Shown piece after piece: positions 17,951 to 52,867 of a DNA stretch of 64,000 nt (position 1 is the stretch's first letter; the number at the start of each line of letters is the position of its first letter). The notes under the pieces are model-generated. The model did not search any database, had not been told where the DNA came from, and saw only the letters and a list, made by a program, of their open reading frames with translations. This stretch comes from Candidatus Nomurabacteria bacterium (GTDB lineage Bacteria; Patescibacteriota; Minisyncoccia; Phycocordibacterales; UBA10002). The stretch covers positions 3,679 through 67,678 of the forward strand of contig CALRDB010000002.1 of the NCBI GenBank assembly GCA_943354745.1, given 5' to 3'. The translations under genes and the position numbers were made by a program.

Positions 17951-17952
17951 AC

Positions 17953-28182: not shown

Positions 28183-28239
28183 AAATACGAACGCGGGGTT
28201 CGTACTTTCGTATCGGTTTTGGGAGTTCGTATTGTTTGA

Positions 28240-28815: not shown

Positions 28816-28921
28816 AGAGAAAATCAGTTATGAATAAATATTAAGAATTATGGCTGTATTGTATTCAGATTGTCTCTATTGGAAATCTTGATTTAATTGA
28901 TATATATGTTATAAGTAACTT

Positions 28922-29668: not shown

Positions 29669-29829
29669 ATTTAGCTTTTATTTACGGCCGTAAATAAAAG
29701 CTGAGTTAGTAAAATGAAGCCACCAGACCCTCATATGAGTCTGAAGGTTGAGCCTTGCTTGTTTTTACAGAGACATTGTTTCAAGAGCGAGTATTTCGTC
29801 CGCCAGTTTTTTAAACTCCATCTTTGCAA

Positions 29830-30126: not shown

Positions 30127-30172
30127 AAAAGTAGAAATAATCTTCTAGTAATCTGTAAATAAAACTATAGCG

Positions 30173-31033: not shown

Positions 31034-31144
31034 ATCAGCTATTTAAATATCGAATACTAAATCTCGAATATCGAAAAATACTCAATATTTTAATAGTGAA
31101 TATTTAAGATTTTTTAGAAATTAGATATTAGATATTTCATTACT

Positions 31145-31399
31145 ATGTCTCACATTAGTCGCGACGAGTTTCGGAAAGCGCTTTATAAACTGCGAACAAG
31201 CGGTTCGTTCTCCAATCAGGAAATAGACGAGGTTGAAAACGTCTTTTATGGCAGTCTACATGAGAGTGGATTTTCCGCAGGCATCAGCCCCGAGGAGCTC
31301 CAAAAAGGAATTCACTATCTGAAACACCACCCGGAAAATCACCATCTTTCTCCCGATGAAATTAAGAAACTAGAGGAAGTGCTGACACACTATCTGTAA
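31145..31399 (+). CDS. Hypothetical protein
   Basis: 84-aa ORF. Confidence 0.35.
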   Translation: MSHISRDEFRKALYKLRTSGSFSNQEIDEVENVFYGSLHESGFSAGISPEELQKGIHYLKHHPENHHLSPDEIKKLEEVLTHYL

Positions 31400-31438
31400 A
31401 ACACTGAAAAGGCACGGACGGAAAACATTGAACTGAAC

Positions 31439-31846
31439 CTAAATATCACGAGTTCCGACTCGTTCCGTGTTGGTTTCGCTCTGCTTCTGTTCCGTGCCTT
31501 TCCTAAGTGTCCGTACTGCTCGGACCGCCTTTTTGAGATGACGGACAGCGAAAAAGCCTACCACACCGAGGACCAGAAGTAAGAATTTAGTTTTTAATTT
31601 TGTACCGGTGATAGCGGCAACAGAAAACTGAAGCATATTCGAGCCCGTAGAGGCTGCACCGAAATTAGAAAGCACATCACGCACTGACACAAAGACCGTA
31701 ACAAAAAATACGGTAATCACAAAGATGACACAATCAAACGCCAACGGAGCAAGATTCCTCAGCATGTACAAAAGATACACACGGCGCATAATGCGCTGTC
31801 TCAGTGTACGTCGTGTTTCTGTTTGGGTAATAAAATCGTCTTGCAT
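31439..31846 (-). CDS. Putative membrane anti-sigma factor
   Basis: Single TM protein encoded immediately downstream of ECF sigma gene, 4-nt spacing. Confidence 0.45.
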   Translation of the reverse strand: MQDDFITQTETRRTLRQRIMRRVYLLYMLRNLAPLAFDCVIFVITVFFVTVFVSVRDVLSNFGAASTGSNMLQFSVAAITGTKLKTKFLLLVLGVVGFFAVRHLKKAVRAVRTLRKGTEQKQSETNTERVGTRDI

Positions 31847-31850
31847 GTAC

Positions 31851-32462
31851 TTAATGACTTAACGGGCTCCGCGCTTTCCGTTTCTCGATTAATTCTTTCA
31901 GTTCTTGCTTTGCCCGATGCACTCTCGCACGTACGGCTCCTTCTGAAATACCGAGAATCCGCGCAACATCAGCATGAGGCTTCCCTTCTATAAAGTGTAA
32001 GCGCATTGGTTCGGCAAGGCCTTCTGAAAGTTCCTTAAGAAGTGATTCAACTTCATCACGGTTAAGCTCCTGCTCGCGACGCTCACCAGCTCCACGATCG
32101 GCTACAAGCTCCTGAAACTCAGGATCGAGATCTGCGAGAAAATTCCCATCTCCCTTAGCTTTCTTATACGCGGTAAAGCAGGTGTTAACAAGAATGCGGT
32201 AACCCCATGACTTGAAACCAGCCCCGGGCTGAGGTTCAAATCTTCGCGCGTTTTTGTAAATTTTTACGAAGGCATCTTGAACAGCATCTTGTGCCGCTTC
32301 TTTGGTGCCTAGGATGTAATACGCCTTACGCAAAAAAGCTTCCTCGTACCGTTCGAGTAGTTTTTCAAACAGATATGGTTTATCGAATGAACGCTTAAGT
32401 AGCTCTTCATCGGACAAACCAGTTATGATGTCCTTCTTTGCGTTAGGTTCTTCCAAAAGCAT
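31851..32462 (-). CDS. ECF-type RNA polymerase sigma factor (sigma-70 regions 2 and 4)
   Basis: Region 2 FVKIYKNARRF…WGYRILVN; region 4 HTH ADVARILGISEGAVRARVHRAKQEL. Confidence 0.8.
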   Translation of the reverse strand: MLLEEPNAKKDIITGLSDEELLKRSFDKPYLFEKLLERYEEAFLRKAYYILGTKEAAQDAVQDAFVKIYKNARRFEPQPGAGFKSWGYRILVNTCFTAYKKAKGDGNFLADLDPEFQELVADRGAGERREQELNRDEVESLLKELSEGLAEPMRLHFIEGKPHADVARILGISEGAVRARVHRAKQELKELIEKRKARSPLSH

Positions 32463-37079: not shown

Positions 37080-40016
37080 CTATGTACTACTTACTCTCTT
37101 GAGCTTGCACCACTCGCACTCAGCTTCATCGCAAAACTCGGTCATAATCCGGCCTGACCAGACTGAATCAATAAGCGACTGGATATCTTTCTTGAGCGTC
37201 TCAATATCAACATCGGTGATAGGAAGTGAGACGATACCGCACTTCCCTTTCTTATCGGGAATGACGAACACAAGAGATGGAACAATTTCCTTACCTTTAT
37301 ACTTCGGATCTCCGTGGAGAAGGTATTTGTAAAATGTGAGCTGTCTAAAATAACTACCATCGGAGGACTTAGTCTCTCCTTTAATCGCAGCAACCGTCAT
37401 TACCTCCTTAGTCTTATAGTCAAAGACGCGCACCGTATCTTCTATAACAAGAACCGCGTCGAGCTTGCCGTGAACGGGAATGGTCACAGCGTTCCCTTCA
37501 TACGTCCCCGAAAACTGTCCTTCACTCCAGCTTTCGGTGACCGCCTTCACTACTCCGAAATGGTTCTGCAGCTCGCGCGCGATTACGTTCGCCTCTTCAA
37601 ACAATTCCTTCTTCACCGCTTCTTTTTCGAAAATGGGAAGTAGTGAACGGCTAAGGTACGAAGAAACAGAATCTTTAAAAACATGTTCAATGTGTTCGAC
37701 GCTTCGGTCGGTATCCGCCCAGATATACGCAAACGCTTCGTGTACTGCAGTTCCTTTCTCCGCACTCGCTGCAGGAGCCTGAGGAATCTTGAGAATACTT
37801 TGATACACGAAAGAGCTTGGACACGTAAGAAAGTGGTTCAATGCGGTCACCGACAGTCCTTTTTCTAGCAAAATTGTTTTCGCAAGATCAACTATTTTTT
37901 CTCCTTTTCTATTTCGTACGTTCGTCTCTTGTTCGTAGTTCGTAGCAAGGGAAGGTGTCTCTACGATCGGCATGGGGGCAGAAATACGCTGTACACATTT
38001 TGGATCAAGCTCATCGATAAACCGTAATGGGGTTTCCACTTTCCCACCCGCTATTTCCTCTGGAACAAGGAGTACCGCATGTTTCTTTGCGCGAGTCAAG
38101 GCGACATAGAAGAGCCTCCGTGCGTCACGGGTTGCGTCTTCGTCATCTTTCGCTTTCTCTGGGAGTACGAAATACACGCCTCGTGCTCGGCCCATCCACG
38201 AACTTTCGGTCACAAAGGGGATAAAGACGTACTCAAACTCAAGTCCTTTGCTTCCATGAGCCGTCATTGCCCTCACCTGTAGCTCAGGAGAACCAACACT
38301 CACCTTCACGCTCCTCTCTTCCGCTGAGGCCTTATACGAGCGAAGCTTCCGAAGAAGTTCTTGGGTGTCCTGAATATCACCCTCTCGTATAAGATATTCA
38401 GCAAGTTCTGTAATACCGCGCCACACTTCCATAGCGGAAGGATCCCTGATGGCGAGTTTTACGAATCCCGATATTTCAGCTGCGAACATGATATAGGCAA
38501 GAGCTCCATCGCTCGACAGTTTATTTTGAAGATGACGAAGTGCGGGAATCTTTTCCACAACTCCTTGCCTACCGCTCCGCAATGCTCGAATACACTCTAC
38601 ACCTCCCTCAAACGGAAGATCCCAGAGTCCCACAGCGATAGTCTTCGCAAGCGCCTCAACGTTTGTCGTGTCCGATAGATATTCGATAAGGGTGAAAAAA
38701 AGATTTCCGATGGGGTGATTAAAGATGTTTACTTTCCGCTCAGAAGAAACAGGAACGTGCTTTGACTCTAAAAAACGAATCACTCGTTCAAGGTCGCGAT
38801 TTGTCTTGGTAATGATCGCCACCGTACTCCCGCTCTCTTGTGCAAGAATCTTCTGAATCTCTTGTGCAAGATATTCGAGCGTGGCGGATTCCTTCCCTCC
38901 AACAAGATCAATAGGCCGGACGGCTTCACTCCCCGACGCAGACAGCCGTATACGGAGATGTGTATTTTCTCCGTCTTCATAGTTATGTTCGATCATGGAA
39001 AATGCCCCATCGAGTAGATGTTGGTGTGATCGATAATTTTTCTCGAGTGCAATAATCTTCATATCCTTCCATGCATTTTTGAATGTACGGAAGTTTTCAA
39101 CCGATGCCCCCTGAAAGCGGTAGATCGCCTGTTTTTCATCTCCAACAACGAAGAGGTTTGGTGATGTAAAGAAATCAGCCAAAAGACGAATGAGCAGGTT
39201 CTGCGAATCGTTGGTGTCTTGATGTTCATCTACAAGCAGATAGAGAAACTTTTCCTGCAAAAGACGAAGGAGAAGCGTGTCTTTTTGAAGCGTGGTTAAT
39301 AGTTCTATAATGAGGTCGTCAAAGTCGATACGCCGTTCTTCCCTCTTTCGTTGTTCATATCCCGCATACACATCAGCAAACAACACTGTCCGTTCACACT
39401 TCTCGATCTGTTTTTCCGCATCTGCTTTTAGTTTCCCTTTCGTAGCGCCACGGGTTGACATAGATTCCGGATCAGCCTTGATGTGCTTGATCTGTTCTTT
39501 CGCAAACACGCGAATCATATCGGGTGAAAGTGCTTCGCGTTTGGCGTCGCTTATCGCACCAAGTATTTTCTGCACGTAAAAATCAGGATTACCAAAAGGA
39601 CGAAGTGATGAAAACGATTCATCCTTTAAAATTGAACGAATAAGACTTTCAGCATCGATATCGGTCATCTGTGTCGTTCTGTCCAATTGCGTGAAATGGT
39701 CTTTGTGCTCCGCGATAACAGACGCCGCAAATCCATGGAAAGTATGTAAATGCACTTCATCAGCACGCGACCCCATGAGTGCGCGAAGTTTCTGGCGCAT
39801 CGCCTTCACTCCCGCTTCGGTAAAGGTGATAGCCAAAATGCCCGATGGGGGCGTATCGGTCTTACGGAGAATCTGCGCGATACGAAGCGTCAGTACTGTC
39901 GTCTTCCCTGTCCCCGGCCCCGCTATGACCATGACAGGGCCGTCGATAGTATCGACAGCCTCCCTTTGTTTCGAGTTCAACTGCTTGTACTGAGCATTAA
40001 ATACATCTTCGGACAT
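37080..40016 (-). CDS. UvrD/PcrA/AddA-type ATP-dependent helicase fused to C-terminal PD-(D/E)xK nuclease with 4-Cys cluster
   Basis: Walker A AGPGTGKT; UvrD motifs; C-terminal HGKLDAVLVIEDTVRVFDYKT and CDEAECEWC; ORF-track start is GTG, ATG at MSEDVF. Confidence 0.8.
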   Translation of the reverse strand: MSEDVFNAQYKQLNSKQREAVDTIDGPVMVIAGPGTGKTTVLTLRIAQILRKTDTPPSGILAITFTEAGVKAMRQKLRALMGSRADEVHLHTFHGFAASVIAEHKDHFTQLDRTTQMTDIDAESLIRSILKDESFSSLRPFGNPDFYVQKILGAISDAKREALSPDMIRVFAKEQIKHIKADPESMSTRGATKGKLKADAEKQIEKCERTVLFADVYAGYEQRKREERRIDFDDLIIELLTTLQKDTLLLRLLQEKFLYLLVDEHQDTNDSQNLLIRLLADFFTSPNLFVVGDEKQAIYRFQGASVENFRTFKNAWKDMKIIALEKNYRSHQHLLDGAFSMIEHNYEDGENTHLRIRLSASGSEAVRPIDLVGGKESATLEYLAQEIQKILAQESGSTVAIITKTNRDLERVIRFLESKHVPVSSERKVNIFNHPIGNLFFTLIEYLSDTTNVEALAKTIAVGLWDLPFEGGVECIRALRSGRQGVVEKIPALRHLQNKLSSDGALAYIMFAAEISGFVKLAIRDPSAMEVWRGITELAEYLIREGDIQDTQELLRKLRSYKASAEERSVKVSVGSPELQVRAMTAHGSKGLEFEYVFIPFVTESSWMGRARGVYFVLPEKAKDDEDATRDARRLFYVALTRAKKHAVLLVPEEIAGGKVETPLRFIDELDPKCVQRISAPMPIVETPSLATNYEQETNVRNRKGEKIVDLAKTILLEKGLSVTALNHFLTCPSSFVYQSILKIPQAPAASAEKGTAVHEAFAYIWADTDRSVEHIEHVFKDSVSSYLSRSLLPIFEKEAVKKELFEEANVIARELQNHFGVVKAVTESWSEGQFSGTYEGNAVTIPVHGKLDAVLVIEDTVRVFDYKTKEVMTVAAIKGETKSSDGSYFRQLTFYKYLLHGDPKYKGKEIVPSLVFVIPDKKGKCGIVSLPITDVDIETLKKDIQSLIDSVWSGRIMTEFCDEAECEWCKLKRVSST

Positions 40017-40115
40017 GCACGTAGTATAGCAAATGCGAAAAAACCGGCTCTTCACCGGTTTTTTCTTATTCCGTGTCAGTTCCGCGTTGGCTTCGTTCTG
40101 TCTCGTTCCGTGATT

Positions 40116-41315
40116 TTAATAGCCCTGCAACTTTTTCGACTTCTTATGCTGGCGGATTTTTTCGTGAGCTTTCGCTTCGATTTGGCGGATACGTTCGCGA
40201 GTCACGCCGAATTTTTGTCCCACTTCTTCGAGTGTGTGCGTGACACCGTCGAGGAGGCCATGCCGAAGCTCTAGAATCTTTCGCTCTTTTTCTGAAAGGT
40301 CGCCGAGAATTTCCTTCACTTGGTCTCCGAGGATACGGCGGGACGATTCCTGGTCGGGAGAAAGTATCTTGTCATCATGTAAAAAGTCTCCGAGTGTTGA
40401 CTTGCCGTCGTCGCCCTCATCGCCGACTGGCGATTCCAGCGAAACGGTATCTTGGTCAATTTTTTCAATCTGGTACACCTTGTCCGTCTCAATACCCATC
40501 TCGATACCGATTTCTTCCGGAAGCGGGTCGCGGCCGAGATCTTGTGAAAGTCGTCTCACGACTTGCTTGTACTTAGCGATAGTCTCCACCATATGGACCG
40601 GCACGCGAATAGTGCGGGATTGATCGGCGAGTGCGCGAGTAATCGCTTGGCGGATCCACCACGTAGCATACGTTGAAAATTTATACCCCTTGGTCCAGTC
40701 GAATTTGTCGACAGCCTTAAAGAGACCTAAGTTCCCTTCTTGAATGAGATCGAGGAGTGTGAGGTCAGGCGAGCGTCCCACGTATTTTTTAGCAATCGAA
40801 ACAACCAAACGGAGGTTCGCTCGAGCAAGAAGATTTTTGGCTTCCATGTCTCCCGCCTGAATGCGCTTCGCGAGCTCTTTTTCGTCTTTGGCGTTGATGA
40901 GGGGGTATTGTCCGATTTCCTTGAGGTACATCTGAATCGAATCATAGGATCCTTCACTACTCTTGCCGAGGTAGACATTTTTCTTTCCATGCGGTTCCGC
41001 GACTTCTTTCTCAAGCATTCCACCACCTTCGAGTACGTCAATACCCGCTGTTTGGAATTTGGAGTAAAGTTCATCGAGGAACATGATGTCCTCTTCGATG
41101 GTAGGAAATTCTTTCAAAATGTCGTTATAGGTGATGAACCCGCGATTCTTACCCTTTGCGACAAGACGATCAGCACGTATATCACGCTCCTTACCTTTAG
41201 CCATTTTCTCGACAGGTTTTGATGCAACCTTACTCTTTATAGGCTTCTTTTTTGGAGCAACCTTTGCTTTAATGGCTTTTTTCTTCTTTTTGAGGTCTTT
41301 TTTCGCTTTTGACAT
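40116..41315 (-). CDS. rpoD: RNA polymerase sigma factor RpoD (sigma-70)
   Basis: Region 2 [17 protein letters not shown]…[10 protein letters not shown]; region 4; ORF-track start is TTG at 41387, ATG at 41315. Confidence 0.88.
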
Positions 41316-41387
41316 AGTGGCGATAGTATATCTTAAATAGCGGTAACTGCAACCGTCCGAACATACGAAGAAAAGAGTGGGTTCCAA

Positions 41388-42010
41388 AGAACCTGGGGCT
41401 GCTTAAAAAATGTAAGAAAAAAGCGACTTGAGATGCTACCCAAGTCGCTCGACACAATGCGGTACACTACTCGACCCGACCCAACTCCGCAAAACCATGA
41501 GTGACTAAACCGCAATCGCCAAACGCTCGCGAACGAGCGTTTGGCCCCAAGCAAAGGACGTGATACCGCACCGGACACCACTCAACACGACCGCGGATTG
41601 ACATAATTGCCATGCCTCCGTAAACGAAAGCACGGCCCCGTACCGTAGAACTCAGTGCAGAACAACTGGACACGAAGCCCGAGCCCACCATGCTGTGCCA
41701 TACCTAAATGTGTCAGCCGATTCGAAAATCGACTGACACCCGAACGCTACAAATGAACAGAGGACAAAACAAGACCCTGCAAAACAATACGGCAATCGCA
41801 CTCCAACCGAAGTCGGAGTGCTCCAAGCTGTAACGCTCCGGACCCTGCAACACTTGACGATACCGGACATGACCGCAGAATACACCACCGAAATAAACGG
41901 GAGGTGAAATCCACCTCCCGTTCCCAGACAGGACACAAACGTACAATGCATAACCCTACTGAACCTTACCGAACTGGACCGAAATATTCCGCACCTGCTT
42001 CCAAGTTTGG
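41388..42010. other. CA-skewed hairpin-dense noncoding block A
   Basis: + strand about 63% A+C; perfect hairpins e.g. ccaaacgctcgcgaacgagcgtttgg, cgggaggtgaaatccacctcccg, gtgtcagccgattcgaaaatcgactgacac; ORF track shows only short overlapping two-strand ORFs. Confidence 0.7.
41415..41450 (-). terminator. Rho-independent terminator (minus-strand sense) immediately upstream of rpoD
   Basis: + strand gaaaaaagcgacttgagatgctacccaagtcgc; minus strand gives 8-bp stem followed by U6. Confidence 0.6.
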
Positions 42011-42017
42011 ACCCGGA

Positions 42018-42659
42018 CTATTCACCTGCATATCCTTTCGGTTGCTCCGTCCACTGCCAGCTCACTGCCTCGAACTTCCCGTACGCGCCCCGTTGCTCGG
42101 CCGAGAAGAGACCTATCCCGATATCGCGCCCCGCACTGCCGACGAGCCTCTGGATAATCTTCTCATTAAGCGGCGCCGAGAATGAGATGAGCGCCTCACA
42201 TGACCAGTCGTCAAACTGGGGGCAACGAACGATGCCCATCTCGCGTGAGTTCGGCCTCGCGTGACGATTGCGGGAGTACACACTCCAACCGGAAGTGCTC
42301 GAGAGTATGAGATATCCTCCGATGATGCAGTATTGACTCACCTGATCCACGAAGTGGCCACTATGCCTATCCTGATACGGCCATGCCGCCATGCGAACCG
42401 CGTGCTTCAGCCACCTGCCTGGCACCGCGATACACCCACTGCGAGTGTCGCGGACAAGCAAGTCAGCTAAAGGTTGCTTTGAGATCTTGATGATCTGTTC
42501 ACGCCTGGTATGGTCCGTTATCGGATGCATAAGAAGCGGTGTGACTCCCCGTAGGTGAACGAGGAGGTATTTCTTTGATATCGGTGCCGGTAGCTTCATA
42601 ACGGAGCTCCGAACCGCGTTGGGAACTGGCATTTCTGCCATAACTGTTTTTGTGTTCAT
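42018..42659 (-). CDS. Hypothetical protein (orphan ORF embedded in noncoding island)
   Basis: 213-aa ORF with normal base composition flanked by CA-skewed DNA; no recognised domain. Confidence 0.45.
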   Translation of the reverse strand: MNTKTVMAEMPVPNAVRSSVMKLPAPISKKYLLVHLRGVTPLLMHPITDHTRREQIIKISKQPLADLLVRDTRSGCIAVPGRWLKHAVRMAAWPYQDRHSGHFVDQVSQYCIIGGYLILSSTSGWSVYSRNRHARPNSREMGIVRCPQFDDWSCEALISFSAPLNEKIIQRLVGSAGRDIGIGLFSAEQRGAYGKFEAVSWQWTEQPKGYAGE

Positions 42660-43639
42660 AAATCAATGATCTGTCCAAAACCAACATGCAGAATAACACG
42701 TTTATATAAATACGTCAACTTTCGTATAAAAAGGCGCCATCCGAAGCCGGACAGCGCCATATGATCCAAACACCGGCGAGCATTGCAACGCGATACTATT
42801 CAGAACGCTAACTAACACAAGAGCAATTTCCCGCTCCGATGTAGCATCGGAGCGGGACCCGCAACAGAAGTAACCGCACTCCGGAATACCTTGCGATACA
42901 GAGCCTAGCCCCGCCGGACCGAAATTGCCACCCGTCTTCGAAAAAACGGGTGGCCACGGACCGTACCCGGTTCTACCCGACAGGACATTAGAGTACACAA
43001 CAAGAACCAACACCACCAGAATTTCCTGCCAGCCGTAACCGGCTGACAGGACCCGGACGCTACTCGAGAGTTCAGGACAGGACCTGACTGGACAGAAACG
43101 CGCGTAACCGTAATTCCAGGCCTCTGCGTGCAGAGACCTGGTCCGTGCAAAACAGCGGAATGCACTGGCGGACAGAACAGTATCGAACCGAACCGTACTA
43201 TAGGCTAACAGGAACTTAATTCCCCAAACTCCCTCATCGAGAGTTTGGGTCCGAGCTTCACGGGACATTGCGACACGATGCGACTGCTAGACGCATCTTT
43301 CCAGAAATTCCTATCCTCCCGAGAGAGGTAGGATCCGAACAAAAAAATCTTCTGACGCACAAGACCAGACCTGACTGTAACTGAGACGGCACAAACGCAA
43401 CTGTCGAGTCCTTGTAGTAAGGACTCGACCCTGACCATGCACAACTCCACAACGCCAGACCGAACGGGACAGGGACTAAGCATACTTTTGCGCAATTTCC
43501 TGTCCGTTCTAACGAATGAACAGGACCCACACTCAACCTCACCCAACAGAACATTTGAGAGCGACGACGCAGAATACCTTACCATAGTGAACAGTTACGC
43601 CGAAGCGTACCTGCTGTTTTTCAATGCTCAAATGCTAAC

Positions 43640-43702
43640 TGCAAAGTAACACGAAAATCTATTTTAGGCAAGAAAAAGGCGTCCCGAACGAATCGAGACG
43701 CC
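43640..43702 (-). promoter_or_regulatory. Terminator (43672-43702) plus conserved 20-nt motif TGCAAAGTAACACGAAAAT (43640-43658), module copy 1
   Basis: Minus strand: GGCGUCUCGAUUCGUUCGGGACGCC-UUUUUCUU followed by UAGAUUUUCGUGUUACUUUGCA. Confidence 0.55.
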
Positions 43703-45276
43703 AGCCATAAAGAAGACAAGCCCTGGGCACGGTGCGGAACAATACCTCACCGAGCATAACCTTAATTTGAGTGCTCCGACACATCGAAGCACTCACCCTA
43801 CCGCGGACTTGCATACGAGAAGAAACCCAACCTTGCTAGTGAGTACCGAACCCAAAAGAACCACTGTGTGCGACACCGTATCTACCGATGCCTGGCAAGG
43901 CAGGCATCGGTCCTACACCCTACCGCTCTCTACCCCATGGTACCTAACACCACTGAACACTACATCATCGAAACGAAGTCTGAACGCCGATTGAGAATCG
44001 GCGTTCACCCGTACCGAACCATACCTTGCAACAATCCACAGAACTGAAACGCGCAGCAGATGACAGGACCGAAATTTGTCGTCCCGATTTGTTCATCGGG
44101 ACGACATCCGTACTCTGCGACACCGGTCATTACCTGACAGGTGCACACGCTACGTTACAGGACCATAATGTGCTATCTCGATGAAGCATCGAGATAGCAT
44201 CCGCACCACTATTGGCCGGACAATAAGATACTCTGCAACACCCGAGAATTGAGATCCATAATTTCACCGTCCCAATAGTACATCGGGACGGTGACCCAAC
44301 AAAACCATACCTGACAGGACACCGCGATACTGCAGAACACAGGAGAGGACACTGACTTACCGTAACTTCCCAGACCCTCGCAAGCGAAGGTCTGGGACCC
44401 AACCATACCGGATAACGCCGGACAACGCGCCACTCTACTACACCTGAACGCAATCGCCCATCCCGATCTTAATCGGAATGGGCTCCGAGAAAAACCGTAC
44501 CGTAGAATACACTGCCTTAACACACGAAACGGTGACATACGGAACCGCATTATTCTGCTTCAACCGAAGTCAAAGCAGAACCCACACCGGACATGAATTC
44601 ACCGTACAACACCCTACCCCACTTAAGATGACAAGAGAGCGATAGGTCGCCCTGACCGAAACCAGAGCAACCCCCTACAGAACAGCGCATCGCCACAGGA
44701 TTGCACGCGCTACATAACCAAGCCGGAGCGCAAAGGCTGTCCCGATCGAAATCGGGACGGTCCCGAAGCAAACGGCACGTTTGCGCACACTTGATTACAG
44801 AACTTGAATGCAACATGCTGAACTGAGGCACTGCGTATATACCGCTCCGACCGAAGTCGAAGCGGCTTCGCACGCTACGCTACCGTGCGGGACACAAACA
44901 GACGTTACACCACTCTACGTAACCGCGATACATCACGCGCTCACTGAGCGCGTGATGCCCCCCGCCGCACCAAGCGACACTAAACCCCGACGGACAGAGG
45001 CTATCCTGAACGTGCCACAACTGTCATGCACCGTGAGATGCATGACATCAGCGACAAGCATTACCAGGCCTGACAGAGACACGCCTTGCAGTACGTTTCC
45101 TAGCCTGACCTAATCCTGCGAAACCAGAATTTACCACCCCGACCAGAGTCGGGGTGGTACCCGAGGAAAGCATTAGCTGACCTGACATAAAGACGGAAAG
45201 CCCCACCTATGCTTACTGGGCCGAACGCTACCAAATTTAACTCATTTTCAGTTGACAATGAGCTACTAACGAATTT

Positions 45277-45356
45277 CAAAGTAACACGAAAATAGAGATA
45301 ACGCAAGATTCGCAATCCTGCAAGAAAAAAGGCGTTTTGAGAAAACTCAAGACGCC
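45277..45356 (-). promoter_or_regulatory. Terminator (45325-45356) plus conserved motif CAAAGTAACACGAAAAT (45277-45293), module copy 2; terminates helicase gene
   Basis: Minus strand: GGCGUCUUGAGUUUUCUCAAAACGCC-UUUUUUCUU then …CUAUUUUCGUGUUACUUUG. Confidence 0.55.
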
Positions 45357-45378
45357 GTCGATTGACCTGCAATGGAGA

Positions 45379-47214
45379 TTACTTTCCAAACATCCGCTTC
45401 ACCTCCGCTACCGCCTCGGCGAAGCTTTTGCCACCGTCGTAGTATTGGCGAAGCCCTTCAGAGAGCCGTGGCCAAACGATCTTCCGAAACTGCTGTGAGA
45501 TAAATATGATAGCCCCTTTATCCTTCGGACTCCGAATGTTCCGCCCCATGTGCTGAAGTGACTTGATCCCCACGCGCCATTGTTCAAGTTTGAAATGAGT
45601 GCTTTCACCCCACTTCCTCACCTCGAACACACTTGCTGGATCATCCGGCCTGCTGTATCCAGGACGAAGATCGAAGATGACCGGCGCGAGGCCGTCAGGA
45701 AGATCGAGCCCTTGCCCGAAGTTCGTTTCCGTACCGACCAGAGTCATACCGAGACCATCTTTGAACTCCTGCGCGGCAGTCCGAGCCATTCGTTCACCGC
45801 CATAGCTCACAGTGTCGAGACCCAGATTCGTCGAGTGAACCAAGAATTGATCACGCTCATCGTTTGAGACGACAATGACCAGACTCCGAATCCCCATGTC
45901 CGCCCACTCCTTGCACGCCTTGACCATGCTCTTGAGCGCTTTCTTCAGATCATCGGGCTTCCGGTTCTTCGTTGAGAGGTCCGGCGTATCGGACGGCATG
46001 AAGATCTTGGCGTTCTGTGGAGGAAAGCTTGACGGAAGCGAGAGAAACTCTCCTTCTTCCATTCCGGTTTCCCAACCGAACGTGTCTTTATCCCCGACAG
46101 TAGCCGAGAAGGCCGCGTACTCTTCGCCCAGTATTGAGCGGATGATAGGCGCCACTGTGTGTGCCTTAATCACCAGCTTATGCTGAACGCGCTTACCCTC
46201 CGCGAGTTCCTGCTGATGAAAGGCGTAGCTGTAGTTCATCCTTTTCCGTTTCAACGTGTCGAGCGAATACTCGAACGAGTGAATGTACCGGCGGATATCC
46301 CGCACCAGCACCTCCACTTGGCGAAGTGTTAGGGCCTCTTCCACTTCATCGACGGCCCCTTCACCTATTGCTTTGATGAGCTTATCTCCCAGCCTCGCCG
46401 GATTAATCGCTTCAAGCAGACCCATGAGCTCGAGGATTTCTCCATCCTCAATGATGGTCGGCTTCCACGCAGCCTTCTTCTTAACGATGTCAATCATGCG
46501 TTTCTGAAACTTCGCGAGAAGATCCGTCTCATCGACCTCAAGTCTCTCGAGTAGTTTGACGGCTCGACCGAGGTGATAGTCACTAATCTCGTAAGAGAGC
46601 GTGCGACGAACCACGTCGCCCATTAGGTGCGCTTCGTCAATGACGAGCACCTTCGGCTTCTCCCACCGCTTCGTGAAAAGCTGAGAGAAGAGATAATACG
46701 CAAAGGTGCAGAGCACGATTGGCGCGTTCATAGCCTTGTGGGTGAAGTGATAGTACTGACAGCGCTCCGCGTCCTTCTCGTGCGTCTCCCCCGTTTTGAG
46801 GTTGACGCGATGCGGACAGTTCCGCAGGAAAGAGCAGGCGATTTCATCCGCGCGATATTGAACATCTTCCGGCTTGGTCTCAAGCGAGAATCGTTCATCC
46901 GCGTTGTCCTCGTAGTAGTAGCACGGGAAATCATGTTTACCCACCACGATGGCGAGGTCGAGATATTCCCGATAAATCTGCTGGAGGATGGTCTTGTTCG
47001 GCGTGATGAGAAACAGCGGTTTCTTGCCCGCGTTTGCCGCGGCCTTCAGAATGGCATACTCGACGGCAGTCTTGCCGTGGCCGGTCGGCATCTCAATGAT
47101 GGACTTCGGATGCTGTGCCCAGAATTCGAGAACCTGCCGCTGTTGCGGGCGCATAACGCTGTGCTTCTCTGACGGAAATGCCGAACAGAGTTCGGCAAAG
47201 GTTTGTCTGCTCAT
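45379..47214 (-). CDS. DinG/XPD (Rad3)-family ATP-dependent DNA helicase with Fe-S domain
   Basis: Walker A EMPTGHGKT, DEAH box VIDEAHLM, four Cys between motifs I and II; ORF-track start TTG at 47256, ATG at 47214. Confidence 0.75.
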   Translation of the reverse strand: MSRQTFAELCSAFPSEKHSVMRPQQRQVLEFWAQHPKSIIEMPTGHGKTAVEYAILKAAANAGKKPLFLITPNKTILQQIYREYLDLAIVVGKHDFPCYYYEDNADERFSLETKPEDVQYRADEIACSFLRNCPHRVNLKTGETHEKDAERCQYYHFTHKAMNAPIVLCTFAYYLFSQLFTKRWEKPKVLVIDEAHLMGDVVRRTLSYEISDYHLGRAVKLLERLEVDETDLLAKFQKRMIDIVKKKAAWKPTIIEDGEILELMGLLEAINPARLGDKLIKAIGEGAVDEVEEALTLRQVEVLVRDIRRYIHSFEYSLDTLKRKRMNYSYAFHQQELAEGKRVQHKLVIKAHTVAPIIRSILGEEYAAFSATVGDKDTFGWETGMEEGEFLSLPSSFPPQNAKIFMPSDTPDLSTKNRKPDDLKKALKSMVKACKEWADMGIRSLVIVVSNDERDQFLVHSTNLGLDTVSYGGERMARTAAQEFKDGLGMTLVGTETNFGQGLDLPDGLAPVIFDLRPGYSRPDDPASVFEVRKWGESTHFKLEQWRVGIKSLQHMGRNIRSPKDKGAIIFISQQFRKIVWPRLSEGLRQYYDGGKSFAEAVAEVKRMFGK

Positions 47215-47356
47215 AATCAGTCTTCGGATGTTTGATGTTTGGTGTTCCCTTGTCAAAATCCACTCCCGAAGGAGTGAACTGGAGTCTTAGCCCCGTGCTA
47301 ATCCTCGACGCACACTAACAGGATTTCTCGTCTACGTCAAGGTTTGGTTACGGGTC

Positions 47357-47385
47357 TGTCATTCCCTTGGAAAAGGGAATTCAGT
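47357..47385 (+). repeat. Hairpin repeat family copy f
   Basis: ctgtcattcccttggaaaagggaattcagtg. Confidence 0.65.
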
Positions 47386-48380
47386 GCTGTAGTCCAAATA
47401 TAAAAAGCGCCTCGACGAATCGAGACGCTTATTCCTGACCCAACAAAAGAGCACCTCACATTGGATGAGAATACCCGAACTGACAATACCCGACCGAGAA
47501 GGACCAAAATTGAAGCGTTCCCGAAAACGAGAACGCTTCCCCGCACAGGACACTACCTGACTGCACTGAAACCAACCACTCCGAAATTGAAGCGTCCCGA
47601 CGAATCGAGACGCCTCATCCGGACTCGAGCATTCACAAACGAACAGGACGGAACCTGACTGAACGACGCCGCATGCCACCTCAATCGGCATTCCGCTTTA
47701 GAAACGGAATACCCCCGTACCTTACCTTTGAAATGAGAGGCAAAATTCGAGCATCCCGACTAATTCTCGGGATGCTCGCCTGACAAAGGTGTACCATGAT
47801 TGAGCGAGCCGGCGAAAACCGACTCGCTCCCGAACAGAACTCTACGTCACGCCTCCGAAACAAACGACTGCCTACGGGGCGATACAAAACAGGTGCATAC
47901 GAAGACTTGCCGTAATTGCCGAACACCTTCGAAAAGGCGCTCGGCTCCACACCGAACCTGTTCTCGCAGGACACTACAACAGAAATGTTGGCTTGAGCTA
48001 ACTCATGCAAGCCACACGGCACATCTGATGACCTCAACTGAGCGAGCCGGCCGAAACCGACTCACCCCCGAACGTAAACAGACAGCTCTGCACGGGACAA
48101 TAGCGCACCCAACCTAAACCGACACCACCTGACCATAATTACCAAGCTCCTACGAACAAGAGCTTGGTTCCCGAGCGTACCAAGAAGCGCGAAACAGAAC
48201 AGTTGACTGCGAAACATGACTTTAGAGAACCACAATTGTCGAATCCGTGCTCGCACGGATTCGACCCGAGGAATGACTCAAACAAACATACTGGACTGAA
48301 CGGAACTTTACACTTGTGTGCCCCAAAATAGGTGACCGCAATCACTGCGACAACGAATTGTCGAAGTACGAAATACCGAG

Positions 48381-48432
48381 TGCAAAGTAACACAGAAATA
48401 TAAAAACGGCAAGTCTCGTGAAAGACCTGCCG
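48381..48432 (-). promoter_or_regulatory. Terminator (48403-48432) plus conserved motif TGCAAAGTAACACAGAAAT (48381-48399), module copy 3
   Basis: Minus strand: GGCAGGUCUUUCACGAGACUUGCC-GUUUUUAUAUUUCUGUGUUACUUUGCA. Confidence 0.55.
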
Positions 48433-49135
48433 TATGACTACATTACCTGACCTTACCCTACCCAACCGTACCTTGCCTCAAAGAACAAGACCTAACCGTG
48501 CCACATTCTCCCGCCCCTCTTGCGAATGGCGGGACCCGTGCCATAATCGACCTTACTGAACCTTACCTAAGAGGAACCGGCGGAAGAATCCTCTGCCGAA
48601 ACTTGACGAGCACTTTCGGAAAAGTGCTCGTCCCATGCTGCAGTTCAGATTACTACGCGTCACCTGACCGCGCGAGACGCTACGTTACCGCACTGTAGCG
48701 AGCCGATTGTTATCGGCCCGCTCCCGAACAAAACCCGACACCACGTTAGCCCGCAGAACTGAACCAAGCTTGAGCGTATTAGTGGACAGCTCCGCTAGGA
48801 GCTGTCCAACCGATACCTTTTCATAACGCACTGAACAGTGGATTACAAAACGGGACACTGCACCACCGGACCGTAATCAGTATCCCGACTTTCAGCGGGA
48901 TACTCCGGTACCGAACAGGACAGGGCCATACTTAGGAACACTCAAAATGAGCACACCTGACTTGACCGTACCGCAATTGCCAAACTTCTGCGAACAGAGG
49001 TTTGGCTCCACACAGCGCCTGTGTTCACAGGACTACAGGGTACAAAACCTGACGATTGAGTACGACAGGATACGAGACCGAAATGGTCGGCGGAAATGCT
49101 TTTCCGCCGACACCGACAACAGACTGAACTCTGTC

Positions 49136-49167
49136 AAAAAAAAGCGGAGGTACCGAAGCACCTCCAC
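49136..49167 (-). terminator. Strong rho-independent terminator (minus sense) after hypothetical gene
   Basis: Minus strand GCGGAGGUGCUUCGGUACCUCCGC followed by U8. Confidence 0.7.
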
Positions 49168-49188
49168 ATGACTGTCACTTCTTCGTCG

Positions 49189-50010
49189 TTACTCGGTAGC
49201 TACCGGAGCCGGACTGAGTCCCGCCACGCGTTTTTCGAGAACCTTACTCGACATTCGGCCGTTGTCCTCCGTCTTCGGAGCATGCTTCTCAGCCTGGCCG
49301 ACGTACTTGATTTCAATGTCGTCATTGATCGGTTCGATCTTGATTACTTCGAACTTCGAAACACGAAACTGTCCGTAGGAACCGGGCTTGTTTGGGGCCG
49401 AACCGCGCCAGTCGCCGAGACCGGATTTTTCGCCGGCCTTCTGCCAGAGCTGGAGCACGGTGTCGTCAGAGAAGTCAGGGTCCTTGAAGGTGAACTCAAT
49501 CTCGCACGCCCACTTCGGAATTAAAGGGCGGACCGTACGATTGGACCCCTTGGTCTGTTGGTTGACGGTACGACCCGCGTGAACTTCCCACGGAGTGTTC
49601 GCTTTCGCCTCCTCCTCCCCCATCGGCAACGCCTCGGTCGCAACTTCCCCGTTCGCATCGAGCCCCTTGAAGGCATAGAAGCGTTTGGTGAAGGTCACGA
49701 TGCTGGGGATTTCGGTTCCGCCACCTGACTTGGTGATGGCCGACGTGCGCTTCCCTTTCTTGACGGAGATGTGCTTCCCGCCGTTACAGAGGGTGGCCAT
49801 GAGGTTGTCCATTGGCCAGCCCATTTCACCGTTCGGTCCGCGATAGAGCTTGGCCTGAGCAACCACAACATCTTGGATGTCGCCGCGCTTGGGCGTTGCC
49901 GCTTTTTTGCCGCCGATCTCTTCAAGTGTACCGAGAAGCATGGGGTTTTGGATTGCTGCGGTTACTGAATCCAGTAACATCCGCACTGTCTTCTGCTGTC
50001 TTTCTGCCAT
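49189..50010 (-). CDS. Hypothetical protein (273 aa)
   Basis: Long ORF with balanced composition directly downstream of dnaG; no recognised family. Confidence 0.5.
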   Translation of the reverse strand: MAERQQKTVRMLLDSVTAAIQNPMLLGTLEEIGGKKAATPKRGDIQDVVVAQAKLYRGPNGEMGWPMDNLMATLCNGGKHISVKKGKRTSAITKSGGGTEIPSIVTFTKRFYAFKGLDANGEVATEALPMGEEEAKANTPWEVHAGRTVNQQTKGSNRTVRPLIPKWACEIEFTFKDPDFSDDTVLQLWQKAGEKSGLGDWRGSAPNKPGSYGQFRVSKFEVIKIEPINDDIEIKYVGQAEKHAPKTEDNGRMSSKVLEKRVAGLSPAPVATE

Positions 50011-50116
50011 AATTACCCTTACTTAATGCACCGAATCGCCGAAGCGAGCCGGTTTTGTTATGTAGTTGTCGAAGAGCTATAGATTCGGGCCGAAAAGCCT
50101 TGTCTGTAAGCCCTTG

Positions 50117-50137
50117 TTCACAGTGTGTGAACAGTGC
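50117..50137. promoter_or_regulatory. Palindromic candidate operator TGTTCACA-gtg-TGTGAACA upstream of the 273-aa hypothetical gene
   Basis: Perfect 8-bp inverted repeat with 3-nt spacer about 110 nt upstream of start codon. Confidence 0.3.
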
Positions 50138-50227
50138 CAAAAGCACACGCGATTAGCTCGACCAAACTAACAGAGATACGAAATTTTGTCAATAGTACGT
50201 AGTAAAGCAGGGTACCGTGTAAACGAG

Positions 50228-51982
50228 TTAAGAAGTCGTAGTAAACCGGTGGGATTTGAGGGCTCCCAATTTTTGGGTGAGTTCTTTACACTTTGCCAGC
50301 AGGGCTTGCGTCTCTTCTTTATTCCCGTCGTGCTCTGATTTGGCCAGTGTGTCCATTGTCTCAGAAAGAAGCATCGTAATATGCTCTTGTTCCAAATGAC
50401 GAAGAAGCTCCTCTTCCTCACTTACACCGGGCGAGGTATCCCCGTAGAGCGCTTCGGCTTCAAGCAAGAGAACATCAGCAAGTGCTTTATAGTGCTCTAC
50501 TTTTTTATCGAATACCTCCTTTTCAAAGATGCGGAGAAGTGCAGTCTGTAACCGCTCGAACAACAACGTATTCTTCTGCGACTCCGAAAGAAGATAAATA
50601 CTAAACACCCTCCGTTCAAGTGTATTCGAACGAACCGGTGCGGTAGCTTTACGTAATTCAGGTATTTCTTTTTCTCCAGCGACAGCCGGTACTTTTTTAA
50701 ACGCCTCCCAGAGCGCATCTTCCCGAAGACCGCTTTTCTCGGCGATTACTTTTATAAAATGGGATTGCTCAACAGGAGAAGTGAGAAGGCGGAGAAGCGG
50801 AAGTAGCGTCTTCTCAATCGCGAGCGCACGTTCCCTTCCCTCCTTGGAAGCATTGATAAGGTTAAGAAGAAGAAAATCAATAACGTGCTTTGATTCTGTT
50901 ACCGCCCTGTCCCATTCCTTTGGCTCCTTCAAAATAAGTTCAGCGGGATCTTTGCCTCCCCCGATCGCAATAACCTTCACATTCATACCAAGGGCGAGCG
51001 CCAGTTTTATCGCACGCTCGCTTGCTCGCACACCCGCACTATCCGCATCAAACGAAAGCAAGAGATTTTCGGACAGTCTTTTCAGACGCACAAGTTGTTG
51101 TTCGGTGAGTGCTGTCCCCGAAGATGCGACAGCATTCTCATGACCAGCTTGATGCACCATAAGAAGGTCCACTTGTCCTTCAACCAGTATCGCCGCGTCC
51201 TTTTGTCGTATCACGAGTTTCGCGCGGTCAAATCCATACAGGACTTCGGACTTATTGAAGAGCACGGTCTCGGGGCTGTTGATATATTTGCCTGTCTTTC
51301 CATCATCAAGTCTGGGGAGAATACGTCCTGAAAATGCGATAACTCGTCCCGCACTATCCCGAATCGGAAACATAATCCTCCCCCGGAAAGTATCATAGTA
51401 TTTCTTAGGACCTGACCCTGTGTGCCCTACAGAATCGGTTTGGTTGGCAATTTTAATCAAGCCGACCTTTCCCATTTCTTCCGGTGTAAATTTTTCCCGA
51501 GTGAGATAGTCGAATAGTTGCCTCCACTCCGCGGGGGCAAATCCTACTCGCCAGTCTTGTAGCGTTTTTTGGGTGAGACCTCTTCCGTCTATGTACACCT
51601 TCGCTTCAGCTGTAGCCCGCAATGTTTCTTCATAAAATCTCGTCGCTTTTTCGAGACAGAGATACAACCGTGCGTATTCGCTCTGTACCTTTGGATCAAG
51701 CTTAGTCAGGGTGACTCCCGCACGTTGCGCGAGCACCCGTAAAGCACCAATAAAGTCGAGTCCTTCAAACTCCTGCACGAACGTGAAAATATCCCCCTTT
51801 GCCTGACACCCGAAACAGTAATAGGAGTTGCGAGCAGGCGAGACAAAGAACGACGGCGACTTCTCATTGTGGAATGGGCATTTAGCCTTATAGGAAGTTC
51901 CTGCACGCTCAAGCTTTAGGTACGATCCAACCACATCGGCGATACCTAATCTTTCTTTAATTTGTTCAACCGGAGTGGACAT
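50228..51982 (-). CDS. dnaG: DNA primase
   Basis: Zinc-ribbon CPFHNEKSPSF…CFGC; TOPRIM domain; 584 aa. Confidence 0.9.
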   Translation of the reverse strand: MSTPVEQIKERLGIADVVGSYLKLERAGTSYKAKCPFHNEKSPSFFVSPARNSYYCFGCQAKGDIFTFVQEFEGLDFIGALRVLAQRAGVTLTKLDPKVQSEYARLYLCLEKATRFYEETLRATAEAKVYIDGRGLTQKTLQDWRVGFAPAEWRQLFDYLTREKFTPEEMGKVGLIKIANQTDSVGHTGSGPKKYYDTFRGRIMFPIRDSAGRVIAFSGRILPRLDDGKTGKYINSPETVLFNKSEVLYGFDRAKLVIRQKDAAILVEGQVDLLMVHQAGHENAVASSGTALTEQQLVRLKRLSENLLLSFDADSAGVRASERAIKLALALGMNVKVIAIGGGKDPAELILKEPKEWDRAVTESKHVIDFLLLNLINASKEGRERALAIEKTLLPLLRLLTSPVEQSHFIKVIAEKSGLREDALWEAFKKVPAVAGEKEIPELRKATAPVRSNTLERRVFSIYLLSESQKNTLLFERLQTALLRIFEKEVFDKKVEHYKALADVLLLEAEALYGDTSPGVSEEEELLRHLEQEHITMLLSETMDTLAKSEHDGNKEETQALLAKCKELTQKLGALKSHRFTTTS

Positions 51983-52072: not shown

Positions 52073-52867
52073 CTAAGGGGCCCCAGAAATGGGGTCCTTT
52101 GTGCTTTTTAGGGCCTCTTTTGAGCTTTCTTCGCCGTTCCAGCAGATAAAATCCCGCAGTTCAAAGATGTCGAAAATAAACAGACCTTCCTTCACCAAGG
52201 CGTTCAGCTCGCGGGAAACTCTGCCGGCTGTAGCGAATAATACAACCTTTTTACCGTTTACAAGTAGGCTTTTTATCGGGTCGGCAAAGTCGCTATCCCC
52301 GCTCCACAAAACAAACGTGTCGACATTATCCCGCAGGTCATCTATCCGCATATCCGTGCCTATCTCAACGTCAAAATTGCATTTCCTGTCCTCTATGGAG
52401 TAAATACCTTGTGCATTCATCTCCTTGAACTTATTGTTGAGAAACTCAACTGTTTCGATACTGTACTTCCTGAGCAGAGATTTCCTCATGAATTTCTTCA
52501 ACAAATCCGGCGACTGCAAAGAAATACTTGAGACGTCGATTGGCAACTTCATTATCTTTACCGACTTAGTTCGTATTTCGTATTTGCATCGCTCTAACTT
52601 TTTTATTTCTTCTCGGGAGTGGGGGTCGCCGACTAGCTCTCCTTGATACCATTTTATGGAACCCACACTCTCAAAAGATTTGAGAAACTGCTTCAAACGA
52701 TTTGGACTGACATGCCATTTTAATTTTTCCGACCAAGGACGGACATTGGCAAAATCAATATAGGTGTTCGTTTTGCCAACGAAAAGGCCATCCACCTTCT
52801 GCACCGTAGGCATACGGTCCTCTCTCTTTGCCAGCTCTTCAATTCTTTGGGTCTTGGGCGTGAACAT
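52073..52867 (-). CDS. NYN/LabA-like domain protein (predicted RNase)
   Basis: C-terminal LWSGDSDF signature of NYN domain. Confidence 0.6.
   Translation of the reverse strand: MFTPKTQRIEELAKREDRMPTVQKVDGLFVGKTNTYIDFANVRPWSEKLKWHVSPNRLKQFLKSFESVGSIKWYQGELVGDPHSREEIKKLERCKYEIRTKSVKIMKLPIDVSSISLQSPDLLKKFMRKSLLRKYSIETVEFLNNKFKEMNAQGIYSIEDRKCNFDVEIGTDMRIDDLRDNVDTFVLWSGDSDFADPIKSLLVNGKKVVLFATAGRVSRELNALVKEGLFIFDIFELRDFICWNGEESSKEALKSTKDPISGAP

Follow-up and report, generated by a model that had tools for sequence, protein, structure and literature searches.

The DNA analysed here is a 64,000-nt stretch of a Candidatus Nomurabacteria contig (CALRDB010000002.1; hereafter the window), in which an 8.8-kb cassette (41388-50227) separates the genes dnaG and rpoD. 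We assign this cassette, with a probability of about 0.88, to the VIPR (Viral Interference Programmable Repeat) systems, as one inserted into the chromosome of a Patescibacteria (Parcubacteria-group) bacterium and working by the mechanism proposed below. The assignment was made because the homology of two small proteins to Vipr, the GGY/NN code of the noncoding DNA, the size of the guide units, the layout of the locus, and a helicase accessory all fit VIPR. The Vipr homology, the RAMP fold with its glycine-rich loop, the GGY/NN pentamers with hypervariable NN, and the minimal locus with an accessory gene, all of which define VIPR, were found in the cassette, and this kind of system has been known since April 2026. 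The initial annotation of the window had concluded that the interval matched no known element class, which no longer holds now that its Vipr proteins and GGY/NN guide arrays have been identified.

VIPR was reported in two bioRxiv preprints (10.64898/2026.04.26.720920 and 10.64898/2026.04.26.720927; cryo-EM, PDB 36pp). As described there, it consists of a small ancestral RAMP protein (Vipr) and guide RNAs of about 100 nt (vrRNAs), each made of at least 4, typically 9-16, YNNGG repeats and a structured 3' tail; the repeat variants NNNGG, YNNNG, and NNNNG are also allowed (10.64898/2026.04.26.720920). In the SUSP1 complex, one Vipr protomer is present per repeat and the GGY is sequestered, while the NN pair with DNA and every third target base is skipped. 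The gapped R-loop triplex formed by SUSP1 silences transcription, and VIPR is described as a transcriptional repressor in the characterised systems. According to the preprints, some chromosomal VIPR types carry helicase or nuclease accessory genes, with nucleases in types III and V only. Chromosomal types with enzymatic accessories are reported to target viruses, and some VIPRs are aimed at other VIPR systems (10.64898/2026.04.26.720920).

dnaG (50228-51982) and rpoD (40116-41387, or to 41315 from the ATG) lie on the minus strand, and both were confirmed by Pfam. Only three credible coding sequences (CDSs) were found between them, all on the minus strand (42018-42659, 45379-47256, and 49189-50010), and the coordinates, gene content, and three-CDS count of the initial annotation hold. 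The interval had also been read as an insertion that splits dnaG and rpoD, and a synteny check bore this out. In GCA_964358365.1 (L024), a relative that shares a 90%-identity RpoB cluster with the window, rpoD comes directly after dnaG with no cassette between. The named members of this cluster place the host in the Patescibacteria/Parcubacteria group. The comparison of the two loci confirmed the 8.8-kb cassette as a true insertion between normally adjacent genes. No integrase or adaptation genes were found among the cassette CDSs. Other contigs with the cassette were 100% identical in three samples and 99.97% identical in a fourth; copies this similar are uninformative on guide evolution.

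The noncoding remainder of the cassette (about 5.5 kb) exhibited a plus-strand AT skew of +0.2 to +0.39 and a GC skew of -0.1 to -0.23. On the minus (gene) strand, its five blocks contained 59-65% G+T, or approximately 61.5% when weighted by length. The strand asymmetry noted earlier, at 63%, was thus found again at about this level, but the 5-nt periodicity behind it had been overlooked. In every block, the autocorrelation of G was +0.14-0.15 at lags of 5, 10, and 15 and was positive also at lag 20, unlike the CDSs, which showed 3-nt periodicity; this signal is well beyond what chance would give. No 10-nt super-period, as a strict alternation of the two Vipr proteins along the RNA might give, was observed in the blocks, lags 5, 10, and 15 being equal. 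When the pentamers were pooled over 33 modules anchored at hairpin ends, they read N, G (46%), G (55%), Y (75%), N; counted from the 3' end of a hairpin, they stayed in register over the whole inter-hairpin stretch. The G+T skew arises because three of the five pentamer positions are constrained to G, G, and a pyrimidine. Run over the 64-kb window, a detector of GGY-pentamer tracts returned 35 minus-strand tracts in the region and none elsewhere on the minus strand. The sole tract outside the cassette (1336-1375, plus strand, 8 units) had a score of 4.6, marginally over the threshold, and is probably due to chance.

Thirty-six guides were clean, each with 8-18 pentamer units. Their NN positions were flat in composition (A.24, C.27, G.22, T.27), and all 16 dinucleotides were used. 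Guide-guide matches, within the window or against the arrays of the relatives, did not rise above the shuffled null, and no shared or duplicated guides were found. The G+U-rich stretches are accordingly worded here as predicted GGY/NN pentamer guide RNAs (vrRNAs). Rfam, searched with the whole window at gathering thresholds and with the region at E<=1, returned for the region only two sub-threshold sRNA matches, on a terminator; hammerhead ribozymes were not found in the region by Rfam at E<=1. Neither TRF nor a repeat finder detected CRISPR-like repeats. The repeat families that did emerge were only 60-89% identical and are traceable to the pentamer code, to promoters, or to a few hairpins related to one another. 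These searches support the earlier exclusion of a CRISPR array, an integron, rRNA, and an insertion sequence. The remainder had moreover been described as non-protein-coding, strand-asymmetric, and hairpin-dense, and this description is supported by the 5-nt rather than 3-nt periodicity and by the hairpin counts.

Perfect stems of at least 7 bp occurred at 5-10 per 2 kb in the region compared to mostly 1-4 elsewhere in the window, so the density was above the window background. The only other raised density, 6-7 per 2 kb, was at 28001-32000, where no GGY/NN tracts were present and which is unrelated to the arrays. Fifty-one hairpins were strong (dG <= -11 kcal/mol); seven of them were T-run terminators, one was located in the helicase leader, and 43 were internal to the arrays. 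The 43 internal hairpins were all distinct, with a mean arm identity of 0.29, which is near random. Approximately 98% of their stem positions were canonical pairs, with 4-6 pair types per position, and UUCG was the commonest loop (13/43). This pattern of covariation indicates that the structure of the hairpins, not their sequence, is under selection. The stems of the modules were 10-15 bp, mostly 11-13 bp, with approximately 95 nt from start to start and 58-94 nt between hairpins. Dense and non-identical hairpins had thus been recognised correctly, whereas the stems of 7-12 bp and the spacing of 40-60 nt given earlier were not reproduced; the shorter spacing is obtained when weak G-U hairpins within the G+U-rich tracts are counted as well.

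Each strong hairpin, read on the gene strand, had GG before it and the conserved (A/G)ATT-NN-GG after it. A predicted unit has its A-AUU start directly after one hairpin and its GG end at the next. Taken as a tract plus the following hairpin, the units had a median length of 96 nt (range, 73-122). Every tract abuts an 11-13-bp hairpin whose structure is kept by covariation while its sequence varies, and no pseudoknot was evident. In array 2, two inter-hairpin intervals at 47802-47714 were just 23 and 34 nt long, leaving three hairpins close together, and may represent truncated or decayed units. Some segments of hairpin plus flank were 62-75% alike (repeat families D6 and D2: 47803-47851, 48041-48089, and 48697-48745; 42919-42981, 47910-47972, 48133-48195, and 48971-49033). 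Since such segments exist, and since the internal hairpin 47620-47585 is similar to the terminator hairpins that end arrays 2 and 3, the arrays may grow by duplication of units followed by divergence, as these likenesses suggest.

The motif TGTTANTNTG was found eight times in the window compared to 1.8 expected. Six of these fell within the cassette, exclusively on the minus strand, each one preceding a gene or an array; four of the six were members of a repeat family of 43 nt (D5). Each predicted transcription unit ends in a T-run terminator. The features of the cassette, in the direction of the genes, are as follows.

50163-50192, minus strand: promoter-like site for vipr-A; TTGACA at 50192-50187, a 17-nt spacer, and the extended -10 TGTTAGTTTG at 50172-50163; putative function
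49189-50010, minus strand: vipr-A; 273-aa open reading frame (263 aa in databases), G-loop GLGDWR...YGQF
49144-49167, minus strand: terminator-like hairpin and T8 after vipr-A
48406-49111, minus strand: predicted vrRNA array 1; about 7 units of GGY/NN tract plus hairpin, terminator hairpin 48433-48406
48383-48392, minus strand: extended -10-like motif TGTTACTTTG for array 2, in the 43-nt promoter repeat family D5
47402-48368, minus strand: predicted vrRNA array 2; about 10 units, two of them short, terminator hairpin 47433-47402
47311-47320, minus strand: extended -10-like motif TGTTAGTGTG upstream of the helicase gene
45379-47256, minus strand: DinG/XPD-family SF2 helicase, candidate VIPR accessory (vap); probable start Met at 47214
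45331-45356, minus strand: terminator-like hairpin and T-run after the helicase gene
45277-45286, minus strand: extended -10-like motif TGTTACTTTG for array 3, repeat family D5
43678-45265, minus strand: predicted vrRNA array 3; about 16 units, 5' hairpin 45265-45238, terminator hairpin 43702-43678
43642-43651, minus strand: extended -10-like motif TGTTACTTTG for array 4, repeat family D5
42733-43615, minus strand: predicted vrRNA array 4; about 9 units, terminator hairpin 42758-42733
42689-42718, minus strand: promoter-like site for vipr-B; TTGACG, 17 nt, TATTCT with an upstream TG
42018-42659, minus strand: vipr-B; 213-aa open reading frame, 204 aa from the Met at 42632, PLLMH, G-loop GIGLFS...YGKF
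41421-42017, minus strand: predicted vrRNA array 5; about 6 units right after the vipr-B stop, terminator hairpin 41450-41421 just upstream of the rpoD promoter region
44171-44263, minus strand: example unit; the guide tract 44263-44200 reads A-ATT-AT-GGA-TC-...-GGTGC-GGA, with a 13-bp hairpin at 44199-44171, after which the CATTATGG of the next unit follows

Read together, the motifs and terminators predict the order promoter-viprA-terminator-array 1, promoter-array 2, promoter-dinG, promoter-array 3, promoter-array 4, and promoter-viprB-array 5. The five arrays together would encode about 46 vrRNAs.

The 213-aa and 273-aa proteins (hereafter B and A) had been taken for orphans, and Pfam, PADLOC, and NCBIfam indeed gave no matches for either. 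Nevertheless, a profile of the B family matched PDB 36pp_D, 'SUSP1 Vipr protein', with E=2.1e-16 over residues 2-188 of 202, compared with E=0.09 for the next CRISPR RAMP, Csm5. An AlphaFold2 (AF2) model of B (pLDDT 82, pTM 0.79) gave Cas7-type RAMPs as its top Foldseek matches, namely Csm3, the type VII Cas7, and IV-A3 (probability 1.0, TM 0.5-0.6), and B is accordingly modelled with a Cas7-type RAMP fold. B also matched uncharacterised viral proteins of about 200 aa. A was aligned to the B family by hhalign with a probability of 97.8% (E=1.2e-12, 174 columns), and an expanded profile of A matched the SUSP1 Vipr (PDB 36pp) nearly over its full length with E=1.8e-13. The AF2 model of A, built from four sequences, was poor (pLDDT 54), with weak top fold matches to Csm3/Cas7. 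In an exhaustive profile search, A retrieved 1210 representatives at E<=1e-3, mostly of 180-330 aa among the matches listed, and this set appears to be the wider Vipr superfamily. The G-loops GIGLFS..YGKF of B and GLGDWR..YGQF of A were conserved. By homology, then, both small proteins belong to the Vipr-family RAMPs rather than being orphans, A being a divergent paralog of B. Both were very rare: only 4 (A) and 9 (B) protein clusters were found among 5.8 billion.

The third CDS encodes a helicase with the Walker A motif GHGKT, a DEAH motif, and four invariant Cys between them, and its Pfam matches were ResIII, DEAD, DEAD_2, and Helicase_C_2. The best PADLOC model was typeIV_DinG PDLC01439, 'CAS-IV-A associated', matched over the full length with E=1.1e-41, and the NCBIfam matches were far below their cut-offs. 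Orthologs in three related loci (L001, L006, and L007) were 54-58% identical, with C98, C127, C133, and C152 invariant. These four Cys occupy the position of the Fe-S cluster domain of XPD/DinG.

Relatives of the cassette were found at two loci among the GTDB species representatives and at five in JGI metagenomes; with so few loci, the clade is rare. The layout viprA-array-(dinG)-array-viprB-array was also present in L001 (a JGI contig), L002/L012, L006, and L007 (a metagenome-assembled genome), each in a different genomic neighbourhood. The proteins of the related loci were just 33-58% identical while the architecture was conserved. As in the window, the hairpins of these loci were variable and the tracts were on the gene strand only, with ATTCAYGG or ATGTGTGG as the post-hairpin motif. 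The cassette-free relative L024 contained no GGY/NN tracts. In Candidatus Taylorbacteria (L002-L005 and L012), both Vipr paralogs and the arrays were present with no DinG, and the cassette adjoins serine recombinase and DUF3800 genes upstream of prfB. Since the paralogs and arrays are common to all of the loci while the Taylorbacteria version is without DinG, the core of the clade, judged from gene content, consists of two Vipr paralogs plus arrays, and DinG is a frequent accessory.

Distant B-like proteins (L029 and L030) adjoin textbook GGC-NN vrRNAs, which ties the clade to canonical VIPR. Near-perfect N-GGC-N arrays of 11-13 units were observed at 8529-8757 in L029 and 7688-7831 in L030, right after a 175-aa distant Vipr homolog; these tracts scored on both strands because GGC and GCC mirror each other. 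In viruses, the subtype was not found, either in IMG/VR by conserved peptide patterns or in GenBank phages by tblastn with Vipr-B. Protein homology, the pentamer code, hairpin covariation, array organisation, the insertion, and the conserved layout are all directly supported by the data.

From these data, from the SUSP1 work, and by analogy with type IV-A CRISPR, we infer transcription, processing, ribonucleoprotein assembly, DNA targeting, a role for the helicase, and an anti-phage function as follows. Six promoter-like sites would drive vipr-A, the DinG-type helicase gene, vipr-B, and the five minus-strand arrays. Each vrRNA would read 5'-A-AUU-NN-(GGY-NN)x10-16-GG, followed by a hairpin of 11-13 bp, often with a UUCG loop. 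Cleavage between units may occur at the conserved A/AUU located at the 3' base of every hairpin. The variable hairpins may serve as 3' caps or processing punctuation, like the SUSP1 tail, and their differing stems may limit recombination or misfolding in long transcripts. By homology to SUSP1, Vipr protomers would polymerise one per pentamer, sequestering the GGY and presenting the NN. Base pairing of the NN with double-stranded DNA, in which every third target base is passed over, would yield a gapped R-loop of about 30-45 bp. In type IV-A CRISPR, DinG is recruited to the bound target; by analogy, the DinG-type helicase of the cassette may be recruited likewise and would hamper the transcription or replication of the invader.

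Compared with the type II VIPR of the SUSP1 phage and the Pseudomonas fulva prophage, the cassette shares a small RAMP homologous to the SUSP1 Vipr and guides of about 100 nt (median, 96 nt here), in which 9-16 or more GGY/NN pentamers precede a structured element, here a hairpin that would be the 3' end of the unit. Common to both are also the placement of the arrays in intergenic DNA on either side of vipr, a DNA-acting accessory, and the lack of CRISPR repeats and adaptation genes. However, SUSP1 is described with one Vipr, whereas the cassette has two diverged paralogs, kept in all five related loci. The SUSP1 tail is given as invariable and with a pseudoknot, whereas a simple hairpin with a different sequence in every unit is found here. 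Four vrRNAs are described for SUSP1, compared with about 46 predicted here in five arrays bounded by promoters and terminators. SUSP1, moreover, resides in a phage with a small DNA-binding accessory, and the cassette in a Patescibacteria chromosome with a DinG-type helicase. With VIPR types III-V, which the preprints describe briefly, the cassette shares a chromosomal location, an accessory helicase, and a presumed role in host defence. The helicase-bearing type is presumably type IV, since nucleases are reported only in types III and V. The array kinds named in the preprints are type II, staggered, hammerhead-interspersed, and single vrRNAs, none of them a variable-hairpin array. The two paralogs, the variable-hairpin punctuation, and the approximately 46 guides are not described in the text of the preprints. 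With 670 Viprs counted in 667 systems, the preprint data would allow for a few loci with two Viprs.

The cassette also resembles type IV-A CRISPR-Cas (Csf1-3, Csf5/Cas6, and DinG/Csf4) in its Cas7-type RAMP fold and its DinG-family helicase, in the lack of a nuclease, and in having a hairpin with a conserved sequence of about 8 nt at the unit boundaries. Like type IV-A, it probably binds and blocks rather than cuts. In contrast, type IV-A has identical repeats, contiguous spacers, Csf1, Csf3, and Cas6, whereas the cassette is without these and has a gapped pentamer code. The Fe-S domain of the type IV-A CasDinG is only vestigial, unlike the helicase of the cassette, which keeps four invariant Cys at the position of that domain. 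We tentatively speculate, as a possibility well short of even odds, that the cassette is a distinct VIPR subtype, intermediate-looking between single-protein VIPR and the multi-subunit class 1 (type IV-like) CRISPR effectors, with duplicated, specialised Viprs and a DinG effector. If so, one paralog might form the GGY-reading filament and the other might cap the A-AUU or bind or process the hairpin in a Cas5/Cas6-like manner; the guides would be stored in long arrays punctuated by structure-only hairpins with an 8-nt handle-like motif.

Targets of the guides were sought at several scales. In the 64-kb window, the perfect skip-3 matches were the guides themselves. In the related loci examined, the best match was 18 of 22 bases, which is approximately the chance level calculated for the sequence searched. 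For the spectrum of NN dinucleotides, the best fit was to codon positions 1-2 read in antisense (r=0.68 for guides and 0.49 for tracts in the window). The same best fit was obtained in each of the four relatives tested, with a pooled r=0.70 and a permutation p=0.0015. This is suggestive of, but not conclusive for, targets in coding sequences with the wobble base skipped. The methods of the preprint 10.64898/2026.04.26.720920 include a '>=80% NN match' criterion, which was applied to IMG/VR with type III and V guides. By a binomial estimate, a 12-unit guide at >=80% NN match would give hundreds of chance matches in ~10^11 bases, and the type III/V target assignments made in that preprint may need a shuffled-guide null.

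Several points weigh against the assignment to VIPR or against the mechanism proposed for it. The guides found no self-target in the 64-kb window, where they matched no better than shuffled ones under skip rules of 0, 1, and 2. In IMG/VR, six 20-base xNN guide cores gave 0 exact matches, and a 16-base core gave 9, none of which agreed with the rest of its guide beyond chance (1-4 of the other 12 bases). A search of JGI metagenomes with one 20-base core returned 0 exact matches. Since exact matching was used in both collections, targets with mismatches would be missed. The GGY is more degenerate than in SUSP1, with the first G at only 46% and many internal units deviating. Some of the SUSP1 GGY-contact residues are missing from each paralog. 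A retains the D-W-R of the G-loop and the R-P thumb motif with no equivalent of H17, and B retains the His and an aromatic residue with L-F-S in place of D-W-R in its G-loop; this split hints at a division of labour between A and B. According to the preprint (10.64898/2026.04.26.720920), type II systems are the only ones for which the 1-nt skip rule has been demonstrated. Finally, the role of the helicase is an analogy with type IV-A CRISPR, and transcription, unit boundaries, and processing are predictions.

Among the alternatives, the best survivor is that the VIPR has been domesticated to regulate the genes of its own host, or those of the cell the host lives on, rather than to serve in defence. 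We consider this unlikely, although the cassette sits stably inside the housekeeping dnaG-rpoD locus, is 99.97-100% identical across four samples, lacks integrase and adaptation genes, and yielded neither a viral target nor a viral contig with the subtype in the searches above, and although the characterised VIPRs are described as transcriptional repressors. Against it, the guides match the 64-kb window no better than shuffled ones. The varied contexts in the relatives and the absence from a close relative fit a horizontally moving accessory element, the guide sets of different loci share nothing, as an arms race predicts, and chromosomal VIPR types with enzymatic accessories are reported to target viruses.

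A degenerate or atypical type IV-like CRISPR-Cas, with a Csf4/DinG helicase, small proteins of the Cas7/Cas5 type, hairpins as diverged repeats, and the G+U-rich stretches as spacers, would account for the best helicase model being the type IV-A-associated DinG, for the superposition of the B model on Cas7s including the type IV-A3 Csf2, and for a hairpin plus the conserved ~8-nt AAUUNNGG that resembles a Cas6-type repeat with its 5' handle. It is nonetheless very improbable. No repeat family exceeded about 60-85% identity and the 43 hairpins all differ, a strict 5-nt GGY/NN periodicity, absent from CRISPR spacers, runs through the supposed spacers, and the sequence match is to Vipr (E=2.1e-16) and not to the best CRISPR RAMP (E=0.09). 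In addition, Pfam, PADLOC, and NCBIfam gave no Cas1, Cas2, Cas6, Csf1, or Csf3 model matches.

We attach just as small a chance to the arrays being one or several large RNAs of the structured or 'sponge' kind, such as a decoy to soak up the Viprs of a competitor or a protein that binds G+U or hairpins. Long polycistronic units of repeated protein-binding motifs and the lack of targets in the searches made would agree with such a role, and some VIPRs are described as aimed at other VIPR systems (10.64898/2026.04.26.720920). However, a sponge would have no need for NN positions that are information-rich, unique, and codon-like, as these are; every relative encodes cognate Vipr genes next to its arrays, and no Rfam family appeared at gathering thresholds or E<=1 beyond the two chance-level sRNA matches. 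Decayed or recoded coding DNA (pseudogenes or an alternative code) and a REP/MITE-like hairpin cluster have a negligible probability: the noncoding part has many short overlapping open reading frames on both strands and some Patescibacteria lineages use a variant genetic code, but the 5-nt rather than 3-nt periodicity effectively refutes a coding origin, the flanking and internal genes read normally in code 11, the architecture is conserved among loci with 33-58% protein identity, and, in contrast to REP or MITE copies, the hairpins are strand-specific and differ from one another.

The surroundings of the cassette were also inspected. A gene for an NYN-domain protein (52073-52867, minus strand) is located immediately upstream of dnaG, and L024 has a Bro-N-domain protein there instead (17653-18471). 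Since this neighbour and the presence of the cassette both differ, the dnaG neighbourhood is variable on both sides. Directly downstream of rpoD is a 991-aa UvrD-helicase/PD-(D/E)XK nuclease fusion (AddA-like; 37080-40055, minus strand), at the place of which L024 has an Mrr_N-domain gene. Farther away, a SAM riboswitch (RF00162, 45 bits, just over the gathering score) was found at 27297-27397 (minus strand), upstream of a 351-aa open reading frame (26116-27171).

With VIPR as the preferred reading, the observation is now largely explained, and the second paralog and the DinG link remain a worthwhile question. A rule for annotation follows from the arrays: a G+T skew, a 5-nt periodicity of G, and evenly spaced hairpins that all differ mark vrRNA arrays, which are missed by repeat finders, Rfam, and CRISPR detectors. 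Patescibacteria (the candidate phyla radiation) often lack CRISPR-Cas. The approximately 46 hard-wired guides suggest a possible major defence or control system in the host. As VIPR was reported only in 2026 and, in the preprints, is characterised mainly in phages, the cassette provides a large, cleanly delimited chromosomal example. An ancestral RAMP that duplicated and diversified has been proposed as the source of the class 1 CRISPR effectors (10.64898/2026.04.26.720920). If two diverged Viprs together with a type IV-A-like DinG are not covered by the published types, the cassette would make this step of RAMP duplication directly testable.

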